Origin: Nitrosopumilus sp.
GTDB taxonomy: Archaea > Thermoproteota > Nitrososphaeria > Nitrososphaerales > Nitrosopumilaceae
Direction of reading: 5' to 3'
Assembly: GCA_965203315.1 (NCBI GenBank)
Contig: OZ241857.1
Span: 800,001 to 864,000, forward strand
Length of the DNA: 64,000 bases
Of this stretch, positions 15,316 through 62,980 are shown one piece after another. A program made the position numbers and the translations under genes. The notes beneath the pieces are model-generated. The model was not told where the DNA came from and made no database searches. It saw only the letters and a list, made by a program, of their open reading frames with translations. Position 1 is the first letter of the stretch; each line of letters begins with the position of its first letter.

Positions 15316-15603
15316 ATGATGACTCGGAATAGGGATAACAATGACGTAGATGTATTTTACGTCGATAATTCACCAATAATGAGTCAAGTAGTAGATGTAT
15401 TACATATTTTAGAATCACAGGGAACTGTAACACTCAAGGCTCATGGAGACGCAATTCCAAGTACGGTCTCTATAGCAAATTTCATAAATGATGAGATTTT
15501 GGAGAACCAAGTAAAGATCCAAAAAATCGATCTAGATACTGTCGAGATGGCAGGTATCGGAAAGATGACATCCACCATACAGATAGTAATCAAAAAAATC
15601 TAA
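15316..15603 (+). CDS. Alba-like DNA/RNA-binding protein
   Basis: VTLKAHGDAIPSTVSIAN and STIQIVI resemble Alba motifs. Confidence 0.65.
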   Translation: MMTRNRDNNDVDVFYVDNSPIMSQVVDVLHILESQGTVTLKAHGDAIPSTVSIANFINDEILENQVKIQKIDLDTVEMAGIGKMTSTIQIVIKKI

Positions 15604-16016: not shown

Positions 16017-16132
16017 AATCTCTCAATCGACACATACAAGATTTATAGTTTACATTGATCAGGATGTTAAAGTTGTTGTGATTGTAGAATAGGAACATTA
16101 TCTTTTTTAATTTAAGACACAACATAGAATCA

Positions 16133-17068
16133 ATGAGCACATCACAAGAACTGTACAGCCATTTGATCAATGCAACAAAGTCATCAAAGTCAGATCTTAT
16201 TGCATTATCTGGAGGTCTGGACAGCTCAATCTTGGCATATTTGATACGACCAAAGCATGCCATTACGGTAATTGCTGACGATTTCATATCAGCTGATATG
16301 ACCTATTGTCAGATTATTGCAAGTGAGTTGAACATACCACTAGATATTCATACTGTCTCAACTATCGAGATATTAGATGCGGTAGAAGAGACAGTTCGAA
16401 TATTATCAAACTTTAATGATATCGAGATACGAAATCATGTAACCATATATCTAGCTCTAAAGTGGGCAAAGGAACACAACTACAACTCGATCATTACAGG
16501 TGATGGTGCAGATGAACTCTTTGGAGGATACAACTTTCTTCTCTCAAAATCGAGAGAAGAGCAATCGAGAGAGATTATGCGAATAATCGATACAATGCAT
16601 TTTCCAACACGCAAGATCGCTCAAGCCCTAGGAGTAGAGTTAGAGACGCCGTTTTTAACAAGAGAGATGATAGAGTTTGCAAAAGAGATTCCTGTGGAAC
16701 TAAAGATTCGAGATCAAGGTTCTGTGAGATATGGTAAACATATACTACGCAGTACATTTGAGACACATATCCCAAAACAGATAACATGGCGTACAAAAAC
16801 ACCAATGCAAGACGGTTCAGGGACTGCCGGACTTACAAAACTCTTTGAATCTATGATATACGAACCAGACTATATTGAACAAAAATTAAGAATCAAGACA
16901 ATAGATGGTGTAAACATACGTAGTAGAGAGTCGCTACATTACTATAAAATATTCAAAAAGATACATGGAACGCCGGTTGACAAAGACGCAGAACATCCTT
17001 GCCCGCATTGTAAACATGAGACACAAGGAGCAAAGTTTTGTAGAATGTGTGGCGCGTTTCCGATCTAG
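16133..17068 (+). CDS. asparagine synthase C-terminal domain protein
   Basis: LSGGLDSS, TGDGADELFGGY, C-terminal double CxxC. Confidence 0.85.
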   Translation: MSTSQELYSHLINATKSSKSDLIALSGGLDSSILAYLIRPKHAITVIADDFISADMTYCQIIASELNIPLDIHTVSTIEILDAVEETVRILSNFNDIEIRNHVTIYLALKWAKEHNYNSIITGDGADELFGGYNFLLSKSREEQSREIMRIIDTMHFPTRKIAQALGVELETPFLTREMIEFAKEIPVELKIRDQGSVRYGKHILRSTFETHIPKQITWRTKTPMQDGSGTAGLTKLFESMIYEPDYIEQKLRIKTIDGVNIRSRESLHYYKIFKKIHGTPVDKDAEHPCPHCKHETQGAKFCRMCGAFPI

Positions 17069-17205
17069 TTTTTGTATTTACGTGGTTTCTTGATAAATAT
17101 ACGTCTACAACCATTACAACAAAAATGAAATTTTTTTCCATCATACTCGTGTACAAGTGCTAGATCCTCATCTAGCTCAATTCCACAAACTGGATCAATT
17201 GGCAC
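17065..17205 (-). CDS. YHS-domain small protein
   Basis: not in ORF track; hand translation MPIDPVCGIELDEDLALVHEYDGKKFHFCCNGCRRIFIKKPRKYKN. Confidence 0.8.
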   Translation of the reverse strand: MPIDPVCGIELDEDLALVHEYDGKKFHFCCNGCRRIFIKKPRKYKN

Positions 17206-17237
17206 AATGACTAAACTCTAGATTGTTATTTAATCAT

Positions 17238-17603
17238 TTACGAGTTGATGATTTCTTGTATCTTTCTAGGTAATTCTCCATAATCTGCATCAGGTTCAGC
17301 AACCACATACAAGATGTCATTGTTGATCAGTACGCTTATGGCAAGGGCTCGCTCGCGTGATGCGAGTGCAAAGTTTACAGGACCGAGTTGTTTATCAAAC
17401 TCTTTTCTCATCTTTACACGTAGAGCTAACTCCATAAAGAGCATCTCATCGTCCTTTTCATTCTCAAGTGGCTCAACGTTTGCCTTCATTCCACCCGCCA
17501 CCAATCTACCTCGTTCATTGATCACTCCAGCAAACCTAATCTTTGAATCCATCGCCAAGATAGCATCACACACCTTTGTATAATTGTAAATCTTTGATGA
17601 CAA
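17238..17603 (-). CDS. roadblock/LC7-like (DUF6659-type) protein
   Basis: IRFAGVINERGRLVAGG..FDKQLGPV pattern. Confidence 0.7.
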   Translation of the reverse strand: MSSKIYNYTKVCDAILAMDSKIRFAGVINERGRLVAGGMKANVEPLENEKDDEMLFMELALRVKMRKEFDKQLGPVNFALASRERALAISVLINNDILYVVAEPDADYGELPRKIQEIINS

Positions 17604-18809
17604 TGTCTAGTTATCATACACATTACTCATTTATTACCTTTCTATGCGTCTCAAGGCAGCCTTATCAGATCAAGACACAAGCATAAAGGGATCCTGTGAG
17701 GCAGTTTGTACTGTGCTATTTTATCTAGACTTGTGTCTAAGACACGAGTTGTAGCACAAGATCAAGACATAACAAGGTAAACAAGCAATGACCAAGTAGA
17801 TCGCATATCCAGAAATCGATACACGATATACTAGGCATCTATGTCTCAGGTAGCAATATCAGGCAGGGCGAGTCGGCAGATGACTGCGGTACTCAATTTC
17901 CCACACATCCACAAGACTGAAAGGTATTCAGAGACAAAATTTGCGAGATATTGAAGACTTTTTTTCCCACACATGACAGATAATCGATGTGTTTCAACAC
18001 ACGGCAACGATGTTGGATTACATGCTGCATGTGAGAAATACAATATGTGAGGTACTGTAACTCAGATTTGTAAATCCAAAGCTGTTTAGCTCAGACCATG
18101 ATTTGACAGACTCCACTCATCTACTACATGTTATTTTTCATACGAGTCTTTGGATTTGTGACGATGGTATCTTGACGCATTTTTTGACACATAGTATGAA
18201 AACTCCAATTAGAACAAACATAGCAATTACAATTGAATAAAATAGATAAAATAAAATAGATAAAATAAAAGTGAGAACGAATAGAGATTAATTTTCCACC
18301 GCCACATATCAGGATCATATTGTACAAATGAAAATTGATCTATAGTCATGAACATAATAATTTCCCTAGTGTCTAGTATCACAATTTGGCGTTAGCTGTT
18401 CTGCCAGAGGTAAATTCCGTCTCACCTCATATGCGAGAGTAAACAAGAAGACAATTCCTTTCGTGACCACATATCAGAGACGAATCAATACTATGCAATG
18501 TTTTTATGTATTCCATAACAGATCTTTTCAACGTACGAAAATAGTCAGCATGAAAATAAACTGCGTATTTTATGGCTCAATGTAAAAAACTCATATTCAA
18601 TATCTGTTATATTTTTTAAAATGTAAAAATTACTAACATTTTTGCTGTACAGATATTATAAAGAGATCATTGAACAGAATAATTCTGGAATACATTACGC
18701 TCTACAAGACATGTCAATGGATCAAGGCAGAGCATAAACAGTTGATATATTTTGTATAACGATTTGTAGGATTTACATATGAAACGATATCGTATGATTT
18801 CTGGTATTT

Positions 18810-24953: not shown

Positions 24954-25369
24954 TATTGATAGACTATTGTAAATCTAATAAGTATTGAGATCAGTGGAAC
25001 ACGTTGTGGAACACAGTGTAAAAGAGGTCATAGAATTCAATAGTTTGTAGTCAATAGACCAGAGCTGTACGTAGCACATAATTGAAATGACTAGATTTGC
25101 TCAAAATTAGTGATGTGTAACCAGTTGCGGTTCTGTTGGGATGCGATAACTATCCAGAACGGGTATTGCTCAAATCAAATAGTTTATGCAAACACACATA
25201 GTTAGATAATTTGTGATCTACATAAAGTTGCCGACCCTTTACCACGTTCAAAAATATCTACTGCATCTCGATGATCTGAAACACCATAATCGACAATGTG
25301 AGATAGTTTTGATGTTGGGTGTTTGCAAATAGTTGATCGTCATGCATTTTTATTACACAAGACCAAAAG

Positions 25370-25660
25370 ATGTGCATGTATATTGTAATAGTCAAACTAA
25401 AACTCAAAGACGGGGTAAAAGACAACTTTGCAAGGTGGTTTACTGAATCAAATAAGACGATATCAAAATTTTCTGGATTTGTCTCTAGGCGATTGATCAT
25501 GGACAATGATGGCAATTATAGAGTTTTGATCGAGTTTCAGGACAAGAACTCTTTTACTGTAATGCAACAGAGCTCTGAACATCAAGAGTTGCATAAAGTA
25601 GGACATGCTTTTCTAAGCGAACCGCCGATAAGAAGAGATTACAAACTGGTTGCAGAATAG
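25370..25660 (+). CDS. antibiotic biosynthesis monooxygenase-family protein
   Basis: FSGFVSRRL..F..SSEHQELH ABM pattern. Confidence 0.7.
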   Translation: MCMYIVIVKLKLKDGVKDNFARWFTESNKTISKFSGFVSRRLIMDNDGNYRVLIEFQDKNSFTVMQQSSEHQELHKVGHAFLSEPPIRRDYKLVAE

Positions 25661-25750
25661 ATCAAGGGATCAAGACCACCACACATCACACAAGATGACA
25701 GTTGATGAGATTTCATTATTACTGCAACTTATCGATAGATTCTGCGGACA

Positions 25751-25937
25751 GTTCTGTTCAATTGACTGGGTTTGAGACCATTATGACATTATCTCAAAAA
25801 AAAATGCGCAACACGTGACTCAAAACAGCAGTAATTTACGATGGTTGGTTTAAGACCGTTTCCATATTTTGTAAAATTTTTCGAAGATTTTGGGCAGAAA
25901 ATGTCAACCCCCCCCCCCCAGTCAATTGAATAGAACC
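25751..25937. mobile_element. MITE family B, copy 2 (opposite orientation, C-tract expanded to 12)
   Basis: TIR GTTCTGTTCAATTGAC / GTCAATTGAATAGAACC; interior is the reverse complement of 14980-15156. Confidence 0.8.
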
Positions 25938-25953
25938 CATGAATTACCTCCAA

Positions 25954-25992
25954 AATACAAACTCTTGATGGTAATATCAATAACATGTATAA
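25954..25992 (+). repeat. S-layer cassette 1 left inverted-repeat site (TATA-less)
   Basis: AATACAAACTCTTGATGGTAATATCAATAACATGTATAA aligns without gaps to the reverse complement of 30995-31033. Confidence 0.85.
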
Positions 25993-26201
25993 TTGTACAG
26001 GTTGTACAAGTGCTTGTAAAGTTATCTGACATGACCTTTTACAGTCTATTAGTCTACGTACCTACTTCACATCTCTTGTATCAAGTATCTTGTGAATGAG
26101 TAATATTGTATAATGCAAGAGTCGAGGATGAAGGAGTAGAGATCATCGCATATTGTCATTGACACTGTATGTAGATATCACTATGCATAGTTGTATCATA
26201 T

Positions 26202-26219
26202 AAAAAAAGAAAAAGAAAA
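26202..26219 (-). terminator. oligo-T terminator of S-layer gene 1
   Basis: T-rich run on the - strand just after the stop codon. Confidence 0.6.
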
Positions 26220-26226
26220 GTTTGAA

Positions 26227-29200
26227 CTAGTTTACAGTTATTGTTGTTGTCTGTTGTGGAGATAGTGCAGTTGGTATCGTCAACGACTCCCATGCAAATA
26301 CGGTGATTGTGTATTCACCGGCTGCTGTTGGTATCCAAGACTGAGATGGACTAAACGACTGAGATGGTGTCAGTGAACCATCAATCCAAGACAGAGATAC
26401 AGTTACGCCATCGCTATCTTGAATTTGTACCAAGTATGCAAATGGCTGGTCTTTGTCTTGTGTGTTTGTCAAATCTGCAGTGATCTGGACTTGTTGATCT
26501 ATTGATACCGTACTGAGTGTTGTACCTGTAGAGTCTACTATTCTCAACGACTCGATCTTTACTCGTTCTAGAGGAGGTACTATTGTTCCTATTATGGTGG
26601 TTGCAGTGATGTCTTCAGAGTCGCCTGTATTGTATGGAGCAGGTAGAGTGTTGTCGCTGTACTTTGCAGTGACTGTGTCTCCTTCTTCTGTGGATAGTTT
26701 GTGACCACCTGATTGGACAGAGAGTCCAAAGAATACAGTACCTTCAAAGATACCACTTGCTGGCTGAGTCTCTGTTACTGTAAGGGTTATTCCACTAGGT
26801 GCACTAGAAGACCATACTTTGACCTCAAAGTTGTCTGCAGATTCTGGATTCAAGTTCATGTCGGGATCGATTACACGTAGTACGCCTGTAGCTGTAGCAG
26901 GATAACTTGCTTCTAGCCACTGAACTTCACCAATGTTCCAACGGATTAGAGCAGACTTGCGTACAGTCTCGTCGTCAGAGAACTCGAATGATACCTCGAG
27001 TCCGTCGTCGTTGTCTGTTGGTAATAGTCCATCGGTTGGTCCATTACATGTGTCACATGTACGACCTGTGACGTCTTTACCGTTTTCTCCTGTGGAATCA
27101 TCACCGTCTGCGTCGTACGAGAATCCTGTCAGTATTACTTCACCTGTAAAGATACCAGTGTTTGTACCTGTCTCTACGAGTTTGTAGTTTTTAATGTCGT
27201 CGGATCTTGTAGCAACACGCACTGGATATGGATCAGCACCAATCTCGTCTACTTGGTTTGTGTTTAGGTTGTGATCAGGAGCTGTTACAGTGATGAATAC
27301 CTTGTCGGTCCAACTGTATACACTTTGATCTAGTTCTATTGTAGCACCAAAGTTTGATGTGAATACCGTTCTGTCGATATCTTCTGTATTATCACCTACA
27401 TAGTCTGCACCTGATGGTCCATAGTCGGTGTATTCTAGCTTGATCTCTTCGCCTCGTTCTAGTCTGTCGTTGTCTATGGCCTTGGGAACAGATATGACCA
27501 CTTGGAATATGCCTGTGCTAGGACCAGTCTCTCGTAGAGAACCTGGTTCTGCATCGAATATACCTTCACTCAGATTCTTGGTACCTGCGTCCGAGTCCCA
27601 CTTTATTAGATCAAGTGTGTATGTTTCGCGTGTACCGCTGTCTAGATCAAGGTCTGGATCGATGAGTGTTACGATCATGTCCGAGCCTATCACATATACA
27701 GACTTGTCTGTCTGTAGAGCGCCGTTTCGTAGATCAAAGGTAGCAGAGTCTGTGACTGTACGTGGGTTACCAGAAGCATCTGTAGTGTCGTTGTACTGTA
27801 CTGTAATGATATCACCTTGTAGGATACAGTTACCGTCATTTGGACAGTCAGTACTGCTTGGTCCATCGATATAAGATAGATCAAAGCTTGCCTCAAAGAC
27901 TCCAGATTCAGGAGATGTCTCTACCAGAGCATAGTTTGTTGGATCTGGCTCCGGACATGCACCGCCTGTACTTCTAGCGTTATCGTACTTTAGTTGTGCC
28001 AAGAGATATGCTGTCTGTTTGTCGGTATCTGTCGTGGCTGCCTTGTATTCGGCCTCCTTTTTATCTAGATCACGTTTTAATGCACTGATTGCATCATTCG
28101 CGTCTGTTGTAGTACCACCTGCATAGGCTATTGCACACTCGTCACCACTGCGAGAGATCGTGACCATTACTGGACCATTTCCAGACATGCCTTCGATCTT
28201 GTCCTCACCTGTAGGATTCAAGTTGTAATCTGGGTCGTTTACTTGAACATAGACTTTGACTGTACCTAGTGGAAGAGGTTCAGGAGGATTCTTCATGTCC
28301 AAGAATCCTGAAGAGCCATCGTCTGTACCAGTACCATACGGAACTGGGTATACAGTTCTATCTAGAGATACAGAGCCTGTACTTGCACCAATCGATGCAG
28401 AGTCGCCAGCTGTAACTATCTGACCAGAGGCATCTCTAAAGTCTAGATATGTTACACCAATGTCTTTGCCGCTTACAGTTATTTTAGGTTCGTTCGTGTT
28501 TACACTACCATCATCATTAAAGTTGCATACCTCTTTTGGTACAGAAAATGAACCTGTAAAGACTCCTGTACTGGATCCGGTCTCTTGTAGAGTGAATCCT
28601 GTTGCACCGAGTCCGTTCTGAACACCATCAGACAGAGTACAACCAGATTGCCATCTCTTACCATCAAAGGTTACCTCTAGTAGCATTCCTAGTGATTTGC
28701 CACCTGGTAGTAGAGACGTGTACATGATATCATCTGTATTGGTTACGTTCATGCCTACTTGATCTCTATCTGTGTCGGTGTGGTTACTGTCCATCACTAC
28801 TGTATAGGTATCAGCTCGATCAGGATCTGTATTCAGATCAGAGTCCTCTAGAGTGATTACGACATTACTGCCTACACTGTATGTCTCTGCGTTCAGAGAT
28901 ACCACTCCACTGGTGGTTGCGATATCTTGTTGATCAGAGACTACGGCAGTATTGTCGTTTGCATTTTGATCGACATAGTTTACTCGCGCGTCAGAGCCGG
29001 TAAGATCCTCAAAGGCGATGAATTTGACTTCGTTGCCTATTGGAGTGATGTCTTTGTATGTATCTGCATTGTTTACGTTGAGTTGGTTTATCATTATGTA
29101 CTCTAGTGTTCCTGTAAAGGTGCTGGTGTTCTCACCGGTCTCTTCTACCTCGATTCGTATTATCTGATTGTTGACACGCTCAGAGGCTTGTGCTCCATCA

Positions 29201-31002
29201 TCTGTGAATCCAATGCTAAAGATATCTGCAACTATTAGATATGTCTTGTCGGTAAGATCGACTTGTTTTTTAATCTCTGACGCTATGGCAATTCTATATT
29301 CACCATCAAAGTCAGAGAGAGTCTTTGTGTCTGTATCGTCGTTAAACTTTATAAATTTACTTGCGAGATCAAAGACTCCTCTTCCATCACTAGCTAAATC
29401 TGCATGGTATCTTTGAGAGTTTATTTGAAATGGGTTATACGCCACAATCCAATAACTGCTACCACCAAGACTGCCAAAGTCATAGTTTAGTAGATTTACA
29501 CCTACAAAATCATTACCCATTTGCATGTTGGCTTTGTGTTCAGCAACTGTACCAAGAACAACCATGATGGTACCGTATCGACCATCATTTGGATTTCTTA
29601 AATCGTTACCGGTCCTGTTGATGTACATATTTGCCACGTAATGATCTGTGTCATATGTAAAGCCATACTGACTGGTTTGACCACAATGGATGGCCATGTA
29701 ATTTGTACCAAGAACGTTACTTGTTTTCGCATCAATCCTATTGTCAACTATCAGAGGGCATGGATTAATGCCGCCGGTAGTAGAACTATCACTACCTATA
29801 GAATATGGGCTCCATGGACGATCCTTTGTTAGTGTATACGGTTCGCCAATCATAAACGTTGGAATTCTTGCGTCTGAATTGGTTATCTTTTGATCGTCGT
29901 CTACTTCGCTGTTGAGATTTTGATCTGCATCAACGATAGTTAGATCAATGACTTCACCAGAGTTCCATGTACCATCTGCGATATCTAGGTTTACAGTAGC
30001 TGTGGTAAGTTGTGTGTTTACAGATACAGTCTCATCACTATACATGATTTGTGTGTTTTGGCCTCGAGGAGCCATATCTTCAATCATTATTGGAGACTTG
30101 TCATCGTTGGTGATAGTAAAGACGCCTGTGTTTGGACCTGTCTCTTCAAATATGTAATTTGTAGTACCAGATTCTAGTTGTAGTAGATCATTGGTATCCG
30201 GATTCATATTATCTATGCTAAAATTACACTTGTCATCTTTACAACCAAGATTATTGTTAGTAGGCATGATTGGAGTCTTTCCGCCCGTTCCAGAGCCAAC
30301 ACGATCATCATACATATAGGCTGGTGCTCCACCATCGACTGCATATCTCCAAATATCTTTAGTAGTTGGATCGATGTTTAGTATGTGATCGGTTATCTCC
30401 ACATGTACGTGAGAGTTTCTTGGGTACGATGTTCTATCTAGAGTAAGATCATTGTTTACAGAGTCGTCGTATGTGATCGTTATTGTCTGTGGCGCTCCAG
30501 CCTTGTGATATACAATATCAAAGGTATCATCTAGATCAAAGGTCTTTAGAACACTATTGTCTGCAGGAATAGTGATGCCTGCTTGTCTAATGAGATTAGG
30601 CATATTAGGCTGAGCAGATCCCCACAAAGCTTGAGCATCAGCAAAGGTAAGTCCATCATTACTGTCACCACCATCAGCAGCTACTCTAAAGTAACCATAC
30701 CAATTACCATCAGTGTGTCTGAACATCTTTAGTTCTTTGTCATCAACTCTTACACGAGGTTCAGCATCGTCTGCATCGCGGATCAACGGATCATTTACAA
30801 TTACTTGCACTATCTGTAGTCCACCAAAGGTGTTGTCGAACCTAGATCCATATCCATTTGGATCAGCAGCTGAGACGTATAGATTTGGTGTCGACTGGGC
30901 ATAGACTGGCTCCATGCTTGGTATAGCAAAGGTCAGTCCGCCTGCGACCATTATCGTCATTAGTATTAAACTAGTTGTTTTTCGTCCTATTTCGTTATTC
31001 AT
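26227..31002 (-). CDS. slaA: S-layer protein (Nitrosopumilus SlaA type), copy 1, promoter-linked
   Basis: MNNEIGRKTTSL signal; repeated ETGxxTGxFxG Ig-like domains; C-terminal QPFAYLVQIQD..SQSWIP..ALSP. Confidence 0.88.
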   Translation of the reverse strand: MNNEIGRKTTSLILMTIMVAGGLTFAIPSMEPVYAQSTPNLYVSAADPNGYGSRFDNTFGGLQIVQVIVNDPLIRDADDAEPRVRVDDKELKMFRHTDGNWYGYFRVAADGGDSNDGLTFADAQALWGSAQPNMPNLIRQAGITIPADNSVLKTFDLDDTFDIVYHKAGAPQTITITYDDSVNNDLTLDRTSYPRNSHVHVEITDHILNIDPTTKDIWRYAVDGGAPAYMYDDRVGSGTGGKTPIMPTNNNLGCKDDKCNFSIDNMNPDTNDLLQLESGTTNYIFEETGPNTGVFTITNDDKSPIMIEDMAPRGQNTQIMYSDETVSVNTQLTTATVNLDIADGTWNSGEVIDLTIVDADQNLNSEVDDDQKITNSDARIPTFMIGEPYTLTKDRPWSPYSIGSDSSTTGGINPCPLIVDNRIDAKTSNVLGTNYMAIHCGQTSQYGFTYDTDHYVANMYINRTGNDLRNPNDGRYGTIMVVLGTVAEHKANMQMGNDFVGVNLLNYDFGSLGGSSYWIVAYNPFQINSQRYHADLASDGRGVFDLASKFIKFNDDTDTKTLSDFDGEYRIAIASEIKKQVDLTDKTYLIVADIFSIGFTDDGAQASERVNNQIIRIEVEETGENTSTFTGTLEYIMINQLNVNNADTYKDITPIGNEVKFIAFEDLTGSDARVNYVDQNANDNTAVVSDQQDIATTSGVVSLNAETYSVGSNVVITLEDSDLNTDPDRADTYTVVMDSNHTDTDRDQVGMNVTNTDDIMYTSLLPGGKSLGMLLEVTFDGKRWQSGCTLSDGVQNGLGATGFTLQETGSSTGVFTGSFSVPKEVCNFNDDGSVNTNEPKITVSGKDIGVTYLDFRDASGQIVTAGDSASIGASTGSVSLDRTVYPVPYGTGTDDGSSGFLDMKNPPEPLPLGTVKVYVQVNDPDYNLNPTGEDKIEGMSGNGPVMVTISRSGDECAIAYAGGTTTDANDAISALKRDLDKKEAEYKAATTDTDKQTAYLLAQLKYDNARSTGGACPEPDPTNYALVETSPESGVFEASFDLSYIDGPSSTDCPNDGNCILQGDIITVQYNDTTDASGNPRTVTDSATFDLRNGALQTDKSVYVIGSDMIVTLIDPDLDLDSGTRETYTLDLIKWDSDAGTKNLSEGIFDAEPGSLRETGPSTGIFQVVISVPKAIDNDRLERGEEIKLEYTDYGPSGADYVGDNTEDIDRTVFTSNFGATIELDQSVYSWTDKVFITVTAPDHNLNTNQVDEIGADPYPVRVATRSDDIKNYKLVETGTNTGIFTGEVILTGFSYDADGDDSTGENGKDVTGRTCDTCNGPTDGLLPTDNDDGLEVSFEFSDDETVRKSALIRWNIGEVQWLEASYPATATGVLRVIDPDMNLNPESADNFEVKVWSSSAPSGITLTVTETQPASGIFEGTVFFGLSVQSGGHKLSTEEGDTVTAKYSDNTLPAPYNTGDSEDITATTIIGTIVPPLERVKIESLRIVDSTGTTLSTVSIDQQVQITADLTNTQDKDQPFAYLVQIQDSDGVTVSLSWIDGSLTPSQSFSPSQSWIPTAAGEYTITVFAWESLTIPTALSPQQTTTITVN

Positions 31003-31033
31003 GTTATTGATATTCCAATCAATAATTTGTATT
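30995..31033 (-). repeat. S-layer cassette 1 right inverted-repeat site overlapping the ATG
   Basis: contains the dyad TTATTGAT-N6-ATCAATAA at 31004-31025; inverted partner of 25954-25992. Confidence 0.85.
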
Positions 31034-31057
31034 TAAAGACTGTGAACGATTTGTTCA
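31026..31057 (-). promoter_or_regulatory. S-layer promoter: TATA box TTTAAATA (31030-31037) plus palindrome TGAAC-N5-GTTCA
   Basis: TATA ends 27 nt before the slaA ATG; 32 bp identical to 62948-62979. Confidence 0.8.
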
Positions 31058-31317
31058 TCTAGCCTCAACCGTAAGATAGAGACGCGGTATCGGTTCCAAG
31101 AGAATGACAACAGCTAACACAAATGAGCAAAACTAGTTATGTATCTACCACTTGTCAAAAGATAAACTCAAGATACGCATAATGATTATTGAGTAGTTAC
31201 AGTTTAGATATTCCAAGGACTTGCTAAAAACACATTTGCGTTAACTGACATGCAGTATTTGTGTCCAGATTGCAATGTATAGTAAACTACTTTATAGAGC
31301 ACTTGTAGACCTACCTC

Positions 31318-31779
31318 ATGGTAGATGTAGGCGATGCGGCCCCTTCATGGGAGCTCCCAGACATTGATCTAAAGATGCGAACTTTAGACGAGTTTCGTGG
31401 TAAAAAGTTGGTAATGTCATTTATCGTAGCAGCCAGTTCGCCAGTATGTGAGAGAGAGTTGTGTACATTCCGTGATGCATGGAGTGATGTTGCAGATACG
31501 GGAGCAAATATTGTCTCGATCAGTAACGATGGACCGTTTGCAAACAAGGCATTTGCAGAGAAGCATAACTTTAGGTTTCCATTGTTGTCAGACTATACTA
31601 GCAAGACCATTAGAGATTATGATGTATTGATGAAGGACTTGTTGCACATCAAAGATTACAACGCTGCAAAACGCTCTGTATTCATCGTAGACAAAGATGG
31701 CAAGATAGGATACAGATGGGTATCCGAAGATCCACTAAAAGAGCCAAACTATACAGAGATCATCAATCATCTAAAGTAA
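31318..31779 (+). CDS. peroxiredoxin (BCP/AhpC-TSA family)
   Basis: SPVCERELC, FPLLSD, AKRSVFIVD. Confidence 0.9.
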   Translation: MVDVGDAAPSWELPDIDLKMRTLDEFRGKKLVMSFIVAASSPVCERELCTFRDAWSDVADTGANIVSISNDGPFANKAFAEKHNFRFPLLSDYTSKTIRDYDVLMKDLLHIKDYNAAKRSVFIVDKDGKIGYRWVSEDPLKEPNYTEIINHLK

Positions 31780-38350: not shown

Positions 38351-40114
38351 CTATGCCTCATCTTGAGGTGGTTGCTCAGGTGGGTCTGTCACAGGTGGAG
38401 TGAATTTGTACGAATCTGCATGTGTGCCTATCAGTCTAGCCTTATCATTTGTGCCATATAGTATAATATCATAGTCGCCGGCGGTTAGAGAGATCGTAAA
38501 TGTCGCGTTGTTGTCAGCGATGCTGGTACTGCCACGTGTTACAGTGTCGTCAGAGGCGGTTACAATCCAGTGGATCGTACTTGGTCGGAGTGCTTTGACT
38601 GTGTCGCTTCCAGAGGCAAAGTTCTTTTCCTCAAACGTGTATGAAAATTGTATGCCAGTTGAAGAATTTGTGGCAGATATGTTCAGGTCAAATATCTTTG
38701 CTATCTGTCTAGACTGCTCCTTTTTAATGACACCAAATTGGCACACTACATCATCACTCAACTGTACACTAGTACCTTGAGGAAGATGGACTGTACCGGG
38801 CGCATTACGAATTGTACCGGGCGCAAAGTTTGTACTGCTGTCAGCATCTGGCAGCTGTATGATCAAGCCGTTATCTAATTTTTTATAGAATATTGGAGCT
38901 GCATTATAGTATAGTGGAGAACCACTAGAGCTGGTACTGTATACTCGTTTGTTGTTTATGGTATTATCGGTTTCAAAAAAGAATGCGATCAAACGACTAG
39001 TATCACTGTCACCAAATAGATCGTTTGAGATGGTTGCGTTATAATATCTAGAACCGCCACGTTCTTCGATAAAGGTGGAAGGCAGAGAGATGGAAAAGAC
39101 ACCAGTATCCTTCTTTATAATCACAAAGACTTTACCATCGAACTCGGTTTGACCCGTTGAAAATTTCAAGACAACATCTTGATCGGGAGTCATCGATACT
39201 GTATAGGATATCTTGTGACGCTCTTGGCTGCACTTTGGCATTGAGAGGTATTGCGTCATAATATCTTTATTTTGTGCAGTAAGGGTCGTGCTGTTTATCA
39301 TGTTGGAGTAATCTTGATGAGTGTATGTAGATCCAAGTTGGCTAGATGTAGAACTTGTAGATTGTGTACCTGGATTGAGGTTTATGGGATTTGCCGGTGT
39401 GGTTACGGTGTCTGCTGCACCGTAAAAGCCAGTCAGTCGTTTTGTAATGATGACCATATCATCACCATGTTTGCCGTAACATACAGTATTGTTACCTTTG
39501 AGGACATTGTTTGTATCGATCAGGTCAGTTGTACATACGGGGATTGGTTGAGCATCTAGTATGTTGTCACGTGGGGAAAAGTAGAATGGTTTTTTGTCTG
39601 CCTTGTCATATATGGTAACTCGCATGTCCCTGGCGATTATCAACGGTTGGTTAGAGGCAGCTTCAGGATCTGGTGAGCAACTTCCACCGCCTGTAACTTG
39701 AAAGTCTAATCCGTATGCAGATAGTCTATTCTTTTTGTTAGGTTCTATATTGTTGGGTATGTCAAAACCTGGAACACGTTTTGCGTTGAGCCATTTAACA
39801 CGCTCAAAATTTGCATGGCATTGAGTGGTAGAAGAGCCCACAAGCGCAGGGTGCTCTAATGTCATAGCGTACGGTACAATATAGAGATCAGCTGTAGTTT
39901 TTTCTGAGACGTCAACTAGTCTAGAAGCGGCACTAGCATAGTGCATACGACCATATTCGTCTGGATAGAAATAAACTTGAGAAGACGATGTCTTGTTGGT
40001 TATAGGAGTGATGGTTAATAGATCACTAGTTGCAAATGCATCATCTAGCTCAACTATCAGAAACGGTATAACTGTTATTAAAACTAGAACAGGGATCAGA
40101 TGACGCTTGTTCAA
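38351..40114 (-). CDS. secreted/surface protein with one copy of a Cys-containing module, paralogue of 47538-51323
   Basis: signal peptide HLIPVLVL..LDDAF; MRVTIYDK..FYFSP..AQPIPVCTTD..CYG..IITKRLTGFYG module. Confidence 0.75.
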   Translation of the reverse strand: MNKRHLIPVLVLITVIPFLIVELDDAFATSDLLTITPITNKTSSSQVYFYPDEYGRMHYASAASRLVDVSEKTTADLYIVPYAMTLEHPALVGSSTTQCHANFERVKWLNAKRVPGFDIPNNIEPNKKNRLSAYGLDFQVTGGGSCSPDPEAASNQPLIIARDMRVTIYDKADKKPFYFSPRDNILDAQPIPVCTTDLIDTNNVLKGNNTVCYGKHGDDMVIITKRLTGFYGAADTVTTPANPINLNPGTQSTSSTSSQLGSTYTHQDYSNMINSTTLTAQNKDIMTQYLSMPKCSQERHKISYTVSMTPDQDVVLKFSTGQTEFDGKVFVIIKKDTGVFSISLPSTFIEERGGSRYYNATISNDLFGDSDTSRLIAFFFETDNTINNKRVYSTSSSGSPLYYNAAPIFYKKLDNGLIIQLPDADSSTNFAPGTIRNAPGTVHLPQGTSVQLSDDVVCQFGVIKKEQSRQIAKIFDLNISATNSSTGIQFSYTFEEKNFASGSDTVKALRPSTIHWIVTASDDTVTRGSTSIADNNATFTISLTAGDYDIILYGTNDKARLIGTHADSYKFTPPVTDPPEQPPQDEA

Positions 40115-40141
40115 TAATTCCCCCCCAAGGCGTTTATAAAA
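40115..40141 (-). promoter_or_regulatory. TATA box (TTTTATAAA) followed by G7 tract before the TTG start
   Basis: C7 at 40120-40126; TATA at 40133-40141; homologous to 51324-51356. Confidence 0.7.
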
Positions 40142-42666: not shown

Positions 42667-42759
42667 AATTGGTGTTCAGACAAGTTTGATAGTCACTTGA
42701 AAGATATCATAAGATATTAGTCAAGAAATGGGCACCAACAGGACAACTTTGCTATATTC

Positions 42760-42876
42760 GGATCTCTTCGATTTACATTGGATGATATTTCGTAGGACTT
42801 TTCTGTAATTTTTCCCCATAGAATCTTGCAGTGCTTTTTCTGTAACCGTTCTATCCTATGTGAACCGAAAAGATCC
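42760..42876. mobile_element. MITE family A, diverged copy
   Basis: GGATCTCTTCGATTTAC ... GTGAACCGAAAAGATCC with similar interior. Confidence 0.75.
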
Positions 42877-46137: not shown

Positions 46138-46486
46138 ATGCAAACAAACACATTACCCACCAAAAAAGTAAAAACAAGAACGATCTATGTTGGAATAGAT
46201 GTTCACAAGAACTCTCTGTATGTGACAGCAATTGATGAAGATGACAACATCTTACTAGACAAACGCATAATGACAAATCACTATAGTGTTGCAGAGACAT
46301 TCAAGCAATTCCCTGTAGACAAGACCCACTATGTAATGGAGTCATCGTCAGTCTGGTATGGATTGTATCGATATATGACAGACGAGTTGGGATTTGATCT
46401 AGTACTATCGAATCCGTACCAAACAAAAGCGATAGCAGCATCAAAGAAAAAGACAGACAAGGTAGATTCAAAGATACTAGCAGAAC
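46138..46486 (+). pseudogene. IS110-family transposase N-terminal fragment, truncated by a MITE
   Basis: YVGIDVHK, VMES, KTDKVDS (DEDD); frame runs into the MITE at 46487. Confidence 0.85.
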
Positions 46487-46605
46487 GGATCTTTTCGGTT
46501 TACGTGGGATGGTATTTTGCAAGACTGTTCTTGCTAAATTTTCCCCATAGAATCTCATAGTGCTGTCTCCATAACCATTCTATCCCACGTAAATCGAAAA
46601 GATCC
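46487..46605. mobile_element. MITE family A copy
   Basis: GGATCTTTTCGGTTTACGTGGGAT ... ATCCCACGTAAATCGAAAAGATCC. Confidence 0.88.
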
Positions 46606-57743: not shown

Positions 57744-57782
57744 AATACAAGCTTTAGATAGAAACATCAATAACATGAATAA
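57744..57782 (+). repeat. S-layer cassette 2 left inverted-repeat site (TATA-less), overlapping the ATG
   Basis: AGAAACATCAATAACATGAATAA (57760-57782) is the exact reverse complement of 62917-62939. Confidence 0.9.
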
Positions 57783-60700
57783 CGAAATAGGACGAAAAAC
57801 AACTAGTTTAATACTAATGACGATAATGGTCGCAGGCGGACTGACCTTTGCTATACCAAGCATGGAGCCAGTCTATGCCCAGTCGACACCAAATCTATAC
57901 GTCTCAGCTGCTGATCCAAATGGCTATGGCGCTAGATTCGACAACACCTTTGGTGGACTACAGATAGTAGAAGTTATCGTAACTGATCCACTATTGACTG
58001 ATTCAACTGATGCTGCGCCTCGTGTCACAGTAGATGACGTGACACTCACCATGTTACAATCTGGTGATGGTTCTTGGTATGGCTACTTTGCAGACAAAGG
58101 ACAAGGTACAGAAGACAACACTGCCGCACAACAGCCATTTAACGGAAACATAGATTGGGATAACTTGAGCGTTAATCAACCAAACAACAAAGGCAAATTT
58201 GACAATCGGGACAAAATCGAAGAATCTCCAAAAGTTTGGAAGGCACGCAATGCTACCGAACCACTCATAGTAGATACTAACACCGGTATCGCATACTTTG
58301 ATTTTAATGATAAGGATGAGGTCAAAGTAGTCTATCAAAAGGCTGGAAATCCTCAAACAGTAACACTCACATATGACAAGTCTAAAAACAACTCTATCGA
58401 GCTTGATCGAGACTTTTACACACAAGGAGCAAATGTATACATCACAATCACTGATCATGTGCTAAACATAGATCCTACATCCAAAGACAAATGGTTCTTC
58501 CACATGTATGATCTCAACGATACGGAACATGATGGAGAATATAGTACTCTGATTCCTAGTAACTTTGATGAGACAATGACTCTAAGTCGTGAATCAACTA
58601 GTGAGATATTGAAATCTAATGGTGATCCACAACCATATTGGTTCTATTACCACTACTCATCACTTGGTTGTGATGATAACTGTCTACTCAATATACCAAT
58701 GGGCGATACGGAAAACATAATCAACTATATGCCACAACCAGATTCTGATGCAATAGATGCAAAAGTTATTGGATTCATCGAGACGGGACCAAACACCGGC
58801 ATCTTTGAAATACGAGAACAAGATAGCAATAATGACGGTGTTAATGACTTTGGAGCAGTAAAGATCAAATCAGGCGCACCACGAGGAACAAACACACAGA
58901 TCACATACGATGACGACAATGTAGCCGTAAACCTACGACTAACTACTGCTACTGTAGATCTAGATGTATCCGACGGTACATGGAACTCTGGCGAAAAGAT
59001 AGACCTAACCATAGTCGATGCAGATCAAAACAAAGACAGTGATGCAGAAGACGATCAAACAATAGACAATCTAGACGCAAGGATTCCAACAATGATCATA
59101 GGTGATCCATACACACTAGCCGATGACCACAAGATGTCTGGTAATGTGAAAAATCCTAATTACCTCTTGCTAGGACCCGGCTTAGATCCAACGACATTTG
59201 CCAGTGCTAGCCAGATAGCTACCGGGCCAATGATGATGGATGATACACATCAACTAGGCACAATCAAAGTCAGCGGTTCCAATGACTTGACAACCAATAC
59301 TAATGGTAAAACCGGATATATGGTTATGGTTCTTGGATTCCTTGATGAATACCAAGCAGCAATGAGTCTACAAGATGACTTTGTAGGTGTAAATCTACTA
59401 AACTATGACTTTAGTAGTCTCGGTGCTACCAAGTACTGGCTCACGATGTATTCTTTCCCTTCAACGTCTCCTAAATATAATGTGGAGTTGGATAGTGATG
59501 GAGTAGGTGTATTCAATCTTGCAACAGATATGTCTCTCGCTACGAACTCTTCGATAAAGGCACAAGCAAGCGATAAAGGTCTAGCTAATCTAGGTACATA
59601 TAGAATTGCGGTCACTGCAGAATTTACAAGTACATTTGATGTAAGCAAGACATATCCAGTAGCCGCAGACGTCTTTAGCATTGGATTCACGGGTGACGGC
59701 GCACAGGCCTCTGAACGTATCAACAATCAGATAATACGAATCGAAGTAGAAGAGACCGGTGAGAACACCAGCACCTTTACAGGAACACTAGAGTACATAA
59801 TGATAAACCAACTCAACGTAAACAATCCAGATACATACAAAGACATCACTCCAATAGGCAACGAAGTCAAATTCATAGCCTTTGAGGATATGACAGGCTC
59901 TGACGCGCGAGTAAACTATGCCGACATTAACTCAAATGGCAACAATGCTACAGTCTCCGACCAACAAGATATCGCAACCTCTAGTGGTGTGGTATCTCTA
60001 AACGCAGAGACATACAGTGTAGGTAGTAATGTCGTAATCACACTAGAAGACTCTGATCTAAATACAGATCCTGATCGAGCTGATACATATACTGTCGTAA
60101 CACGAAACATGACTGGTGGAACCACGAACATTGGTAAGGACATGGACCAAGTGGGCATCGATGTCATGTCCAAGTATGAGACTCTACTACCAGGTAAGAA
60201 ATCACTAGGAATGCTACTCGAAGTAACCTTTGATGGTAAGAGATGGCAATCTGGTTGTACTCTGTCTGATGGAGTTCAGAACGGACTCGGCGAAACAGGA
60301 TTCACTCTACAAGAGACCGGATCCAGTACAGGAGTCTTTACAGGTTCATTTTCTGTACCAAAAGAGGTATGCAACTTTAATGATGATGGTAGTGTAAACA
60401 CGAACGAATCTAAAATAACTGTAAGCGGCAAAGACATTGGTGTAACATATCTAGACTTTAGAGATGCATCTGGTCAGATAGTTACAGCGGGCGACTCTGC
60501 ATCGATTGGTGCAAGTACAGGCTCTGTATCTCTAGATAGAACTGTATATCCAGTTCCGTATGGTCAGGGTACAACAACTGGTTCAAGAGCCCTAGACATG
60601 GCCGGAGCAAATCTTGCAGGCGGTACAGTCAAAGTCTATGTTCAAGTAAACGACCCAGATTACAACTTGAATCCTACAGGTGAGGACAAGATCGAAGACG

Positions 60701-62658
60701 AGGATGGAAATGGTCCAGTAAAGGTCACGATCTCTCGCAGTGGTGACGAGTGTCTAATAGGTAATGCAGGCGGTACTAGATCAGTTGCAACCGACGAGAT
60801 CAGTAGATTGTTAGAAGATCGAAATACAAAGAAAGCTAGCTATGATGCAGACAAGACAAACACCGACAAACAGACAGCATATCTCTTGGCACAACTAAAG
60901 TATGATGATGCTAGAAGTACAGGTGGTGCATGTCCGGTTCCAGAACCGTTTGGTGCTCTAACAGAGACATCTCCCGAATCTGGAGTGTTCGAAGTAAGCT
61001 TTGATCTATCTCACAGCATAGGACCAAGCAGTACCGACTGTCCAAATGATGATAACTGTATCCTACAAGGTGATATCCTCACCGTACAGTACAACGACAC
61101 TACAGACGCTTCTGGTAATCAACGCACAGTCACAGACTCTGCTACCTTTGATCTACGAAACGGTGCTCTACAGACAGACAAGTCTGTATATGTTATAGGC
61201 TCGGACATGATCGTAACACTCATCGATCCAGACCTTGATCTAGACAGCGGTACACGTGAAACATATACACTTGATCTGATAAAGTGGGACTCGGACGCAG
61301 GTACCAAAAACCTGAGTGAAGGTATATTCGATGCAGAACCAGGTTCTCTACGAGAGACTGGTCCTAGCACAGGCATATTCCAAGTGGTCATATCTGTTCC
61401 AAAAGCTATAGACAGCGACAGACTAGAGCGTGGTGAAGAGATCAAGCTAGAATACACAGACTATGGACCATCAGGTGCAGACTATGTAGGTGATAATACA
61501 GAAGATATCGACAGAACGGTATTCACATCAAACTTTGGTGCTACAATAGAACTAGATCAAAGCGTATACAGTTGGACCGACAAGGTATTCATTACTGTAA
61601 CAGCTCCTGATCACAACCTAAACACAAACCAAGTAGACGAGATTGGTGCTGATCCATATCCGGTACGTGTTGCTACAAGATCCGACGACATTAAAAACTA
61701 CAAACTCGTAGAGACAGGTACAAACACTGGTATCTTTACAGGTGAAGTAATACTGACAGGATTCTCGTACGACGCAGACGGTGATGATTCCACAGGAGAA
61801 AACGGTAAAGACGTCACAGGTCGTACATGTGATAGCTGTAAAGGACCAACCGATGGACTATTACCAACAGACAACGACGACGGACTCGAGGTATCATTCG
61901 AGTTCTCTGACGACGAGACTGTTCGCAAGTCTGCTCTAATCCGTTGGAACATTGGTGAGGTTCAGTGGCTAGAAGCAAGTTATCCTGCTACAGCTACAGG
62001 CGTACTACGTGTAATCGATCCCGACATGAACTTGAATCCAGAATCTGCAGACAATTTTGAGGTCAAAGTATGGTCTTCTAGTGCACCTAGTGGAATAACC
62101 CTTACAGTAACAGAGACTCAGCCAGCAAGTGGTATCTTTGAAGGTACTGTATTCTTTGGACTCTCTGTCCAATCAGGTGGTCACAAACTATCCACAGAAG
62201 AAGGAGACACAGTCACTGCAAAGTACAGCGACAACACTCTACCTGCTCCGTACAATACAGGCGACTCTGAAGACATCACTGCAACCACCATAATAGGAAC
62301 AATAGTACCTCCTCTAGAACGAGTAAAGATCGAGTCATTGAGAATAGTAGACTCTACAGGTACAACACTCAGTACAGTATCAATAGATCAACAAGTCCAG
62401 ATCACTGCAGATTTGACAAACACACAAGACAAAGACCAGCCATTTGCATACTTGGTACAAATACAAGATAGCGATGGCGTAACGGTATCTCTGTCTTGGA
62501 TTGATGGTTCACTAACACCATCTCAGTCGTTTAGTCCATCTCAGTCGTGGATACCAACTGCATCCGGTGAATACACAATTACCGTATTTGCATGGGAGTC
62601 GTTGACTATACCAACTGCACTATCTCCACAACAGACAACAACAATAACTGTAAACTAG
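57775..62658 (+). CDS. slaA: S-layer protein (SlaA type), copy 2, no promoter upstream in this orientation
   Basis: true start MNNEIGRK at 57775; first 149 bp identical and 3' ~1.5 kb near-identical to copy 1. Confidence 0.88.
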   Translation: MNNEIGRKTTSLILMTIMVAGGLTFAIPSMEPVYAQSTPNLYVSAADPNGYGARFDNTFGGLQIVEVIVTDPLLTDSTDAAPRVTVDDVTLTMLQSGDGSWYGYFADKGQGTEDNTAAQQPFNGNIDWDNLSVNQPNNKGKFDNRDKIEESPKVWKARNATEPLIVDTNTGIAYFDFNDKDEVKVVYQKAGNPQTVTLTYDKSKNNSIELDRDFYTQGANVYITITDHVLNIDPTSKDKWFFHMYDLNDTEHDGEYSTLIPSNFDETMTLSRESTSEILKSNGDPQPYWFYYHYSSLGCDDNCLLNIPMGDTENIINYMPQPDSDAIDAKVIGFIETGPNTGIFEIREQDSNNDGVNDFGAVKIKSGAPRGTNTQITYDDDNVAVNLRLTTATVDLDVSDGTWNSGEKIDLTIVDADQNKDSDAEDDQTIDNLDARIPTMIIGDPYTLADDHKMSGNVKNPNYLLLGPGLDPTTFASASQIATGPMMMDDTHQLGTIKVSGSNDLTTNTNGKTGYMVMVLGFLDEYQAAMSLQDDFVGVNLLNYDFSSLGATKYWLTMYSFPSTSPKYNVELDSDGVGVFNLATDMSLATNSSIKAQASDKGLANLGTYRIAVTAEFTSTFDVSKTYPVAADVFSIGFTGDGAQASERINNQIIRIEVEETGENTSTFTGTLEYIMINQLNVNNPDTYKDITPIGNEVKFIAFEDMTGSDARVNYADINSNGNNATVSDQQDIATSSGVVSLNAETYSVGSNVVITLEDSDLNTDPDRADTYTVVTRNMTGGTTNIGKDMDQVGIDVMSKYETLLPGKKSLGMLLEVTFDGKRWQSGCTLSDGVQNGLGETGFTLQETGSSTGVFTGSFSVPKEVCNFNDDGSVNTNESKITVSGKDIGVTYLDFRDASGQIVTAGDSASIGASTGSVSLDRTVYPVPYGQGTTTGSRALDMAGANLAGGTVKVYVQVNDPDYNLNPTGEDKIEDEDGNGPVKVTISRSGDECLIGNAGGTRSVATDEISRLLEDRNTKKASYDADKTNTDKQTAYLLAQLKYDDARSTGGACPVPEPFGALTETSPESGVFEVSFDLSHSIGPSSTDCPNDDNCILQGDILTVQYNDTTDASGNQRTVTDSATFDLRNGALQTDKSVYVIGSDMIVTLIDPDLDLDSGTRETYTLDLIKWDSDAGTKNLSEGIFDAEPGSLRETGPSTGIFQVVISVPKAIDSDRLERGEEIKLEYTDYGPSGADYVGDNTEDIDRTVFTSNFGATIELDQSVYSWTDKVFITVTAPDHNLNTNQVDEIGADPYPVRVATRSDDIKNYKLVETGTNTGIFTGEVILTGFSYDADGDDSTGENGKDVTGRTCDSCKGPTDGLLPTDNDDGLEVSFEFSDDETVRKSALIRWNIGEVQWLEASYPATATGVLRVIDPDMNLNPESADNFEVKVWSSSAPSGITLTVTETQPASGIFEGTVFFGLSVQSGGHKLSTEEGDTVTAKYSDNTLPAPYNTGDSEDITATTIIGTIVPPLERVKIESLRIVDSTGTTLSTVSIDQQVQITADLTNTQDKDQPFAYLVQIQDSDGVTVSLSWIDGSLTPSQSFSPSQSWIPTASGEYTITVFAWESLTIPTALSPQQTTTITVN

Positions 62659-62686: not shown

Positions 62687-62916
62687 ATATGATATAGCAA
62701 TGCATAGTAATAGCTGCATATGGTAAAGATAACAGTAATCGTATGTGATAGCACTACATACATCACGTTATAATACAATGATCTCTACTCTTACATTATA
62801 CAATATTGCTCATTCACAAGATACTTGATACGAGAGATCTGAATTTGGTGCGTAGGACGATAGACTACAAAACATCATGCTAAACTTTACACAGGCACAT
62901 TGCACAGCCTGTACAA

Positions 62917-62955
62917 TTATTCATGTTATTGATGTTTCTTTCAAAAGTTTGTATT
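62917..62955 (-). repeat. S-layer cassette 2 right inverted-repeat site
   Basis: 23-bp perfect inverted partner of 57760-57782; looser similarity extends to AATACAA. Confidence 0.9.
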
Positions 62956-62980
62956 TAAAGACTGTGAACGATTTGTTCAC
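62948..62980 (-). promoter_or_regulatory. second S-layer promoter copy, pointing into the 3' flank of slaA copy 2
   Basis: 32 bp identical to 31026-31057; TATA 62952-62959; palindrome GTGAAC-N5-GTTCAC 62964-62980. Confidence 0.8.

Follow-up and report, generated by a model that had tools for sequence, protein, structure and literature searches.

Two S-layer cassettes and their boundary sites

The 64,000-nt stretch of Nitrosopumilus sp. DNA analysed here (the window; C1:800001-864000 of genome G000, an assembly of 2.47 Mb in seven contigs) carries two cassettes in which a gene for a surface-layer (S-layer) protein is enclosed by a pair of short inverted sites. Each pair bounds about 5.1 kb, made up of one S-layer paralog of approximately 1600 aa and a tail of some 240 nt (Table 1). 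The S-layer identity was assigned from a match to the 'Cell surface protein' of PDB entry 8c8k (1734 aa; E = 0, 1197 bits), and the genome encodes archaeal AmoA. The 24 nt beyond the right-hand site of each cassette form a direct repeat, and the cassette interiors are inverted relative to each other. It is considered somewhat probable, on the strength of the sequence comparisons described below, that the cassettes are units of a conservative site-specific inversion switch in which strands would be exchanged within the spacer of the sites.

The 34-nt pattern AATACAA-N15-ATCAATAACATG occurs without mismatch four times in the window as opposed to 0.06 times expected (at least four in none of 100 shuffles), and TTGAT-N6-ATCAA occurs twice as opposed to 0.25 times expected (at least two in 2 of 100 shuffles). 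A sequence-only reading of the window had reported a dyad at the promoter of the first S-layer gene and TTGAT-N6-ATCAA at 25965-25980, and both are present exactly as described: the plus-strand letters 31004-31025 are TTATTGAT-ATTCCA-ATCAATAA, which gives the spacer TGGAAT on the gene strand (-), and 25965-25980 is TTGAT-GGTAAT-ATCAA. The register proposed for the two arms and the 6-bp spacer also holds, with AGAAAC at both sites of cassette 2 and with GGTAAT (site 1L) and TGGAAT (site 1R) in cassette 1. The left arms of cassette 2 are imperfect (TAGAT in 2L, TTGAA in 2R), so that within the window a perfect dyad is found in cassette 1 only. Genome-wide, the dyad has arms of 5 bp at 14 of the 16 sites, and arms of 8 bp only at 31004-31025. 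The inverted repeat inside one cassette comprises 39-40 nt (88-92 % identity) and, where the spacers match, contains an exact match of 23 nt. Long inverted homology (hundreds of bp) was not found at the exchange points; long homology exists only between different cassettes. The sequence from 31026 to 31057 is an exact 32-nt repeat with cassette 2. A role of the dyad as a hairpin or cruciform was ruled out by weak or absent folding of the sites (0 to -3.9 kcal/mol; z-scores -1.6 to +0.8).

The putative TATA-like box and leaderless start were assigned from the archaeal consensus. The box is located about 30 nt upstream of the ATG, which puts the core of the site between the TATA box and the start codon. 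At the other end of the gene, the approximately 240 nt leading to the S-layer stop codon are conserved and include a T-rich terminator. The small Cys-rich ORF in this tail is probably not a real gene and was rejected as such because of a frameshift between the copies of cassettes 1 and 2. As its frame differs between the cassettes, the tail is treated as non-coding.

Table 1 Coordinates of the cassettes, sites, promoter blocks and recombinase-related sequence in the window
Feature	Position	Strand	Description
Site 1L	25954..25992	+	AATACAAACTC TTGAT GGTAAT ATCAATAACATG TATAA; outer flank without promoter, small-ORF end of cassette 1 inside; 34-nt pattern match 25954-25987(+)
Cys-rich ORF of cassette 1	25985..26029	+	14 codons, MYNCTGCTSACKVI; ATG of site 1L is its first codon
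S-layer paralog of cassette 1	26227..31002	-	1591 aa; promoter joined to gene (ON)
Site 1R	31000..31033	-	Dyad 31004-31025, TTATTGAT-TGGAAT-ATCAATAA; between TATA-like box and ATG of the gene; 34-nt pattern match 31000-31033(-)
Promoter block outside cassette 1	31030..31057	-	TATA-like TTTAAATA at 31030-31037, overlapping the outer end of the site; upstream dyad TGAAC-N5-GTTCA at 31043-31057
Truncated IS110-family DEDD fragment	46138..46560	+	140 aa, matching positions 1-105 of 155 in the Pfam profile; no other recombinase-related ORF in the window
Site 2L	57744..57782	+	AATACAAGCTT TAGAT AGAAAC ATCAATAACATG AATAA; non-promoter flank, abuts S-layer gene of cassette 2; 34-nt pattern match 57744-57777(+)
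S-layer paralog of cassette 2	57775..62658	+	1627 aa, intact; points away from promoter (OFF)
Small ORF of cassette 2	62880..62924	-	MNNCTGCAMCLCKV
Site 2R	62917..62955	-	AATACAAACTT TTGAA AGAAAC ATCAATAACATG AATAA; abuts promoter, leads into small ORF; 34-nt pattern match 62922-62955(-)
Promoter block outside cassette 2	62952..62979	-	TATA-like box and TGAAC-N5-GTTCA dyad; direct repeat of the cassette 1 block

Conserved arms and covarying spacers across the genome

The scan for further sites that the sequence-only reading had proposed was carried out with the 23-nt core TTGAT-N6-ATCAATAACATG. Allowing at most one mismatch, 18 matches were obtained in the genome, which represent 16 distinct sites and copies in a duplicated 17.7-kb contig start, and the cassette-specific spacers hold genome-wide. 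The 16 sites make up eight cassettes, in addition to which there is one variant junction (about nine cassettes overall). Every site abuts the start of an S-layer gene or the end of a small ORF, and the promoter block is present at one site per pair. Seven pairs are inverted with their sites about 5 kb apart: A, B, C, 1, and 2 on contig C1 and G and H on contig C5. The sites of the eighth pair, F, are 40 kb apart in direct orientation and both have the spacer GATAAT. The far end of F bears the 3' end of another paralog, of the poly-G type (40-kb segment in C1:1804953-1850800), from which it follows that F was split by homologous recombination between inverted paralogs in a 40-kb inversion.

All 16 sites have the same right arm, and 14 have the same left arm. 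Pairwise diversity between cassettes amounts to 0.58 at spacer positions 1-3, 0.17 at positions 4-6, 0-0.05 in the arms, and 0.21 in the adjacent non-coding tail; positions 1-3 of the spacer are near saturation. TTGAT is kept at seven of the eight non-promoter sites and ATCAATAACATG at all eight small-ORF ends. Since copies without an adjacent TATA box or in front of the tail are conserved, a role in expression cannot explain the conservation of the arms. Within pairs the spacers covary: they are identical in five of the seven cassettes defined by adjacency, a number that was reached or exceeded in only 7 of 5040 permutations, and the F pair matches too. The mean Hamming distance between spacers is 0.43 within pairs and 2.26 between pairs.

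All promoter-side sites retain AATACAAA and all gene-side sites retain AATAACGAAA, so that the breakpoints must lie between a point just left of TTGAT and the ATG. Cassette 2 has a private change in each left arm, one of which abuts the spacer, while three derived spacer bases are common to both of its sites. This places a putative boundary of exchange or homogenisation at the junction of left arm and spacer in this cassette. The base following the ATG differs between partner sites in four of the eight cassettes (A, C, 1, and H). In cassettes 1 and H, the two sites are in addition unlike to the left of TTGAT and within the spacer. Taken together, the boundary in cassette 2 and the differing base after the ATG reduce the co-evolving segment to essentially the spacer. 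Co-evolution confined to the spacer is exactly what the overlap region of a recombinase predicts; it would otherwise need a sharply bounded conversion tract.

Cassettes 1, G, and H are ON and cassettes A, B, C, 2, and F are OFF, and each of the two states is found in both promoter sequence types. This requires at least two inversions with breakpoints in the 26-nt stretch from left of TTGAT to the ATG. The two orientations were observed only among paralogous cassettes. All eight genes are intact (1591-1675 aa). The dN/dS values of 0.30-0.47 are alike for OFF-OFF, ON-OFF, and ON-ON pairs, with dS between genes of 0.30-0.50. Silent copies are under purifying selection, which indicates that they have been expressed often enough for selection to act on them. 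Mismatched spacers occur in two of the three ON cassettes (1 and H) and in none of the five OFF cassettes (Fisher p about 0.11, calculated by hand). The idea of the sequence-only reading that mismatches could lock a cassette in the ON state is thus suggestive only. Both spacers of cassette 1 have a twin elsewhere (1L is identical to H_R, 1R to the junction in C5), and exchanges between cassettes, as opposed to point mutations, may therefore be the source of the mismatches. Cassette 2, which the sequence-only reading regarded as switchable, is the one with two imperfect left arms.

In the mechanism favoured here, a cassette would consist of an S-layer paralog and its tail of about 240 nt between two inverted cores (TTGAT, a 6-bp spacer, and ATCAATAACATG), with a fixed promoter outside one of the cores. 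By flipping, the cassette would present this promoter with the S-layer gene in the ON state and with the non-coding tail in the OFF state. Inversion would be enzymatic and continuing: a conservative recombinase acting in trans would bind the two conserved arms and exchange strands in the spacer, and a tyrosine recombinase would be the best fit to the geometry of the site. Spacer positions 1-3 would have to match between partners and, having diverged, would act as an address of each cassette that disfavours recombinase-driven exchange between cassettes. This logic of insulation fits the data, and it would serve homology-driven exchange too. The directly oriented pairs 1L/2L and 1R/2R, for which such a safeguard had been suggested, have the geometry claimed for them, with the acc genes, sdhABCD, an RFC-like AAA+ gene, tRNA-Asp, and tRNA-Lys in between. 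A more tentative extension, possible rather than probable, is that of a natural heterospecific-site system, in which one unlinked or possibly unrecognised recombinase would serve about nine independent S-layer switches whose spacers have been driven apart.

Candidate recombinases and competing explanations

Several observations weigh against a dedicated inversion system, and they are considered in this section together with the rival explanations. The first concerns the enzyme. The sites had been likened to dif and XerA had been named as the candidate recombinase. In a 2021 review of archaeal tyrosine recombinases, dif is described as a single-copy site with inverted 11-nt arms around a 6-nt spacer, at the edges of which cleavage takes place (PMC8371274). 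The cassette sites likewise have inverted arms around a spacer of 6 nt. The likeness ends there, however: the arms are 5 bp long, there are 16 sites, and the right arm corresponds to the ancestral S-layer leader. XerA does not hold as a candidate either. The best score with NF040815 was 24 bits, on an ORF of 545 aa, whereas the cut-off is 220, and XerA above the NCBIfam cut-off was found in none of 31 family genomes searched, the present one and the unpublished genome G093 included. A search for serine recombinases (PF00239) yielded no match at E<=0.01 in this 99.98 %-complete genome, while the control search was positive in 12 of 14 genomes. The claim that the window encodes no recombinase stands for intact enzymes, a truncated IS110-type DEDD transposase being the only related sequence (Table 1). 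This fragment is probably not part of the switch.

Two groups of genes are candidates for the enzyme on the basis of profile matches, namely two ORFs of about 545 aa and the IS110-type DEDD genes discussed further below. The two ORFs are tyrosine-recombinase-like paralogs with 40 % identity to each other; one matches PF00589 with 38.1 bits (over the cut-off) and the other with 22.3 bits (under it). The one match to PF16795 (14.6 bits) is on the same tyrosine-recombinase-like ORF, and neither of the two ORFs resembled a solved structure when compared by sequence. Both genes are remote from all cassettes and located in contexts resembling defence islands, and homologs are present in only 6 of 61 family genomes, this one included. 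The two ORFs look like integrases of mobile or defence islands. A search for att-like sequences near both genes revealed a 17-nt direct repeat around a 12.1-kb segment with YR1, which is unlike the cassette site. As to their surroundings (loci L038, C1:1457000-1476999, and L039, C1:403000-422999), one of the genes adjoins genes for a NERD nuclease and for HerA-like and NurA-like proteins. The other adjoins a Dnd-like cluster (cysteine desulfurase, DUF4007, a PAPS-reductase-like protein, and a protein of 1112 aa) and a MORC-like ATPase gene.

A second set of points concerns the origin and distribution of the site. In relatives, the S-layer gene is single and its promoter is built in the same way. 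At seven loci of relatives where the gene starts with MNNEI, no exact inverted repeat of at least 16 nt was among those listed. In the four closer relatives the leader reads TTAAATACAAATTT-TTGA(A/G/C)-AAAAA(T/A)-ATCAATAACATG-AATAACGAAATAGG, and no inverted second copy was found within about 6 kb. Most of the 34-nt site, the 12-bp right arm included, hence represents the ancestral interval from TATA box to ATG and the start codon. The left arm TTGAT is one substitution away from the ancestral leader, and the ancestral spacer is AAAAAT, of which positions 4-6 (AAT) are kept. The triplet AAA is present in the spacer of all four relatives and begins none of the 16 spacers described here. Dyad arms of 5 bp that are a single substitution removed from the ancestral leader, together with the lack of a perfect dyad in cassette 2, make a recombinase site less compelling. 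No multi-copy site was found in any of 150 further species representatives from the genus or in any of 120 sampled family genomes. In two public collections, the site pattern was matched by one genome contig and four metagenome contigs, all without an S-layer start and consequently regarded as chance matches. The system is present in a single genome, which precludes a co-occurrence test for the enzyme. In a genome of another genus (G028), two loci (L050, C1:131000-150999 of that assembly, and L051) each contain a convergent pair of S-layer paralogs. A 545-aa tyrosine-recombinase-like homolog (45 % identical) is encoded about 4 kb from one of these pairs, and the architecture with short sites was not seen there.

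The public data likewise revealed no molecule with an inverted cassette. Six runs from two studies, kept as contigs, contained 71-78 % of the sampled words, and four of them were compared with the region 25300-31700. No joint with a change of strand was present among the pieces listed for this region; as the contigs break in the paralogs, this cannot show absence. The sole bridging contig (run X1, 25300-25994, without differences) has the orientation of the window. Contigs break at 31028 because 31026-31057 is repeated exactly in cassette 2, and the loose ends that were observed at 31029, 31009, and 25953 have the appearance of contigs from other cassettes that cross-mapped.

A case against matched-spacer exchange is provided by the duplicated start of contig C1. 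Contigs C1 and C5 have 17,739 identical bases in common at their starts (region 1-17756 of each) and fork, at C1:17740, inside the spacer of site A_R. At this fork one cassette interior is joined to two flanks with the unlike spacers GTGAAT and TGGAAT, and the spacer goes with the outer flank. The fork fits a crossover in the 5' coding sequence, of which about 110 nt are nearly identical (pi 0.034), better than an exchange at matched spacers. Insulation by spacers cannot be complete: unlike spacers are joined at this fork, and there is no protection against recombination in the long homology of the genes, which occurs. An open frame runs across the junction of the end and the start of C1, which means that both ends are adjacent in the genome. 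Contig C5 carries core genes (nuoL/M, ABCE1, and Trm5), and the gene that flanks its junction encodes an IS66-type transposase. Contig C4 (6.7 kb) consists of a cassette interior without flanks. The arrangement of C1, C5, and C4 hints that the sites are heterogeneous and may reflect a structural polymorphism or a duplication there.

These observations lend some weight to the explanation that fares best among the rivals, unlikely as it is considered to be: homologous recombination by RadA combined with gene conversion between the short repeats, in which identity of the spacers would just extend the perfect homology from 12-15 to 23 bp. Conversion between nearby partner repeats would yield spacers that are common to the two sites of a cassette. 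Central mismatches in a 23-bp block also suppress homology-driven recombination, and covariation alone therefore does not separate the two mechanisms. Neither XerA nor a serine recombinase was identified, and with the tyrosine-recombinase-like genes located in defence islands there is no dedicated invertase to point to. Recombination among the paralogs is evident from the splitting of F by the 40-kb inversion and from the mosaic structure of the S-layer genes, in which blocks are 96 % identical. The spacer that stays with its outer flank at the C1/C5 fork is what a crossover in the 5' coding sequence would produce. However, with 23-40 bp of homology within a cassette and 312 nt between cassettes, RadA-driven events should be mostly between cassettes. 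This explanation also offers no reason for an invariant TTGAT beside three saturated bases, given that TTGAT has no conserved promoter role in the relatives. Moreover, the tract of conversion would have to be very sharply bounded, since homogenisation in cassette 2 ends at the junction of arm and spacer and the base after the ATG differs in four of the eight cassettes.

An improbable alternative to the tyrosine recombinase of the favoured mechanism is a Piv-like recombinase of the IS110 family with a DEDD motif, either domesticated or acting in trans, for which a short central core would need to match. Piv of Moraxella is an invertase of the IS110 family. The variable core of about 3 nt is shorter than the typical overlap of a tyrosine recombinase, and PF01548 is matched 14 times in the genome, in 12 cases by open frames of 348-380 aa. 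Divergent single copies are found among them (C1:1708683, 1544932, and 678979), cassette C has a copy at a distance of 0.6 kb, and the fragment mentioned above lies in the window. The abundant copies, however, are ordinary insertion sequences of about 1.35 kb with the ends CCTAACCATATGTGAA ... TTCACATGGATAAT; no resemblance of IS110 ends or targets to the cassette site was found, and most cassettes have no copy nearby. The insertion point of one IS110/IS1111-like subgroup is within a repeated element and adjacent to ...CCCCCCGTT. The truncated copy in the window adjoins an element of about 120 nt with internal inverted repeats, of which copies are located at 7807-7929, 11704-11826, 42755-42876, and 46482-46605.

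That there is no working switch at all, the leader copies stemming from old duplications or rearrangements and the dyad being a transcription-factor operator or due to chance, would accord with a 34-nt site that is almost the ancestral leader and a dyad one substitution away from it, with the weak or absent hairpin potential, and with the lack of an inverted molecule among the public contigs compared, but is very improbable in view of arms that are perfect at copies without a TATA box or in front of the tail despite a dS of 0.3-0.5, of spacers covarying in pairs, of intact silent genes under purifying selection, and of both orientations in both promoter types.

Surroundings, known inversion systems and significance

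The neighbours of the cassettes are housekeeping genes, with no recombinase among them, and an Rfam scan of the window returned two tRNAs and no other RNA family. Of eight relatives compared, four have both ureG and ahpC, the genes on either side of cassette 1, and in these four the two genes are separated by 22 kb to more than 1 Mb. This is at most a hint that cassette 1 may be located at a rearrangement breakpoint, the relatives being too distant for a conclusion. An inverted repeat of about 165 nt (81-88 % identical; 14997-15155 and 25751-25912) flanks a segment of 10.6 kb that contains urease accessory genes and a gene for a sodium:solute symporter-Usp fusion and that stops 40 nt short of site 1L. 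Further members of the family of this repeat, GTTCTGTTCAATTGAC...GGGG, are located at 51432-51458 and in the upstream region of the paralog at C1:743 kb.

Homopolymer tracts are present at the starts of several surface-protein genes, both in the window (40120-40126, 51335-51343, and 25917-25928) and elsewhere (C1:738670-743100, C1:1810524, and C6:25101). C7 and C9 tracts are situated between a TTTATAAA box and the starts of 38351-40114(-) and 47538-51323(-). These two genes are large and secreted-looking, have no Pfam match, and have their promoter and 5' sequence in common; the longer one, 47538-51323, contains tandem units of about 690 nt. In two further S-layer paralogs, G9-G11 tracts separate a TATA-like box from the ATG. 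A G13 tract is located in the signal-peptide codons of a paralog with 66 % identity that is out of frame as assembled. The tracts look like sites of slipped-strand phase variation and would constitute a second switching mode of the gene family.

In bacteria, DNA inversion is a well-established route to phase variation. The shufflon of the IncI1 plasmid R64 is operated by the tyrosine recombinase Rci on sfx sites. It resembles the mechanism proposed for the cassettes in that one trans-acting recombinase uses many short inverted sites to switch segments of a surface-protein gene, and the site is likewise asymmetric, with one long conserved arm, another arm that is poorly conserved, and a short spacer. 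In contrast, the sfx sites have one common spacer and C-terminal segments are shuffled, while each cassette described here has its own spacer and promoter, whole genes would be turned ON or OFF, and there is no linked recombinase gene. As is proposed for the cassettes, Campylobacter fetus varies its S-layer by inversion of DNA among paralogs (sap) whose 5' ends are conserved. That process is RecA-dependent and involves hundreds of bp of 5' homology and a single mobile promoter, as opposed to the repeat of 23-40 bp with an arm-spacer-arm structure in the cassettes. Engineered heterospecific lox and FRT sites follow the same logic of identical arms and spacer-matched partners, by which several switches can be run on one recombinase; these variants are man-made and have spacers of 8 bp, whereas the spacers found here are natural and of 6 bp. 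A natural code in which each cassette has a spacer of its own is not known to us, and those parts of the literature that were searched revealed none.

In mycoplasmas, surface lipoproteins are varied by inversion of the vsa genes with the recombinase HvsR and of the vpma genes with Xer1. These systems, too, comprise a multigene family of surface proteins with short sites at the 5' ends, and inversion brings a silent gene to the promoter (see also PMC5634654). They differ in having one expression site per cluster and the recombinase gene in the locus, whereas the archaeal cassettes are dispersed and have private promoters and spacers. The available part of the 2021 review names the haloarchaeal virus phiCh1 as the only archaeal example of phase variation (PMC8371274), and in the portions of the literature searched, an inversion switch for the S-layer of ammonia-oxidising archaea was nowhere described.

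In this ammonia-oxidising archaeon, the main protein of the cell envelope seems to be switched ON and OFF in a combinatorial manner at about nine loci. S-layer proteins have been implicated in the concentration of ammonium, according to the abstract of one paper (PMC12153357), and the S-layer is a likely contact surface for viruses. If the proposed mechanism is true, this would be the first cellular archaeal system of phase variation based on inversion, existing alongside poly-G slippage in the same gene family. Flips within cassettes would then be frequent, recombinase-driven deletions and inversions between cassettes would be blocked, and spacer mismatches would be evolvable locks. If the spacers are indeed addresses, the cassettes would be a natural counterpart of engineered orthogonal lox and FRT sites and would provide a defined 23-bp substrate with which the recombinase could be found. 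They would also show how a genome can host many recombination sites among essential genes without destroying itself.

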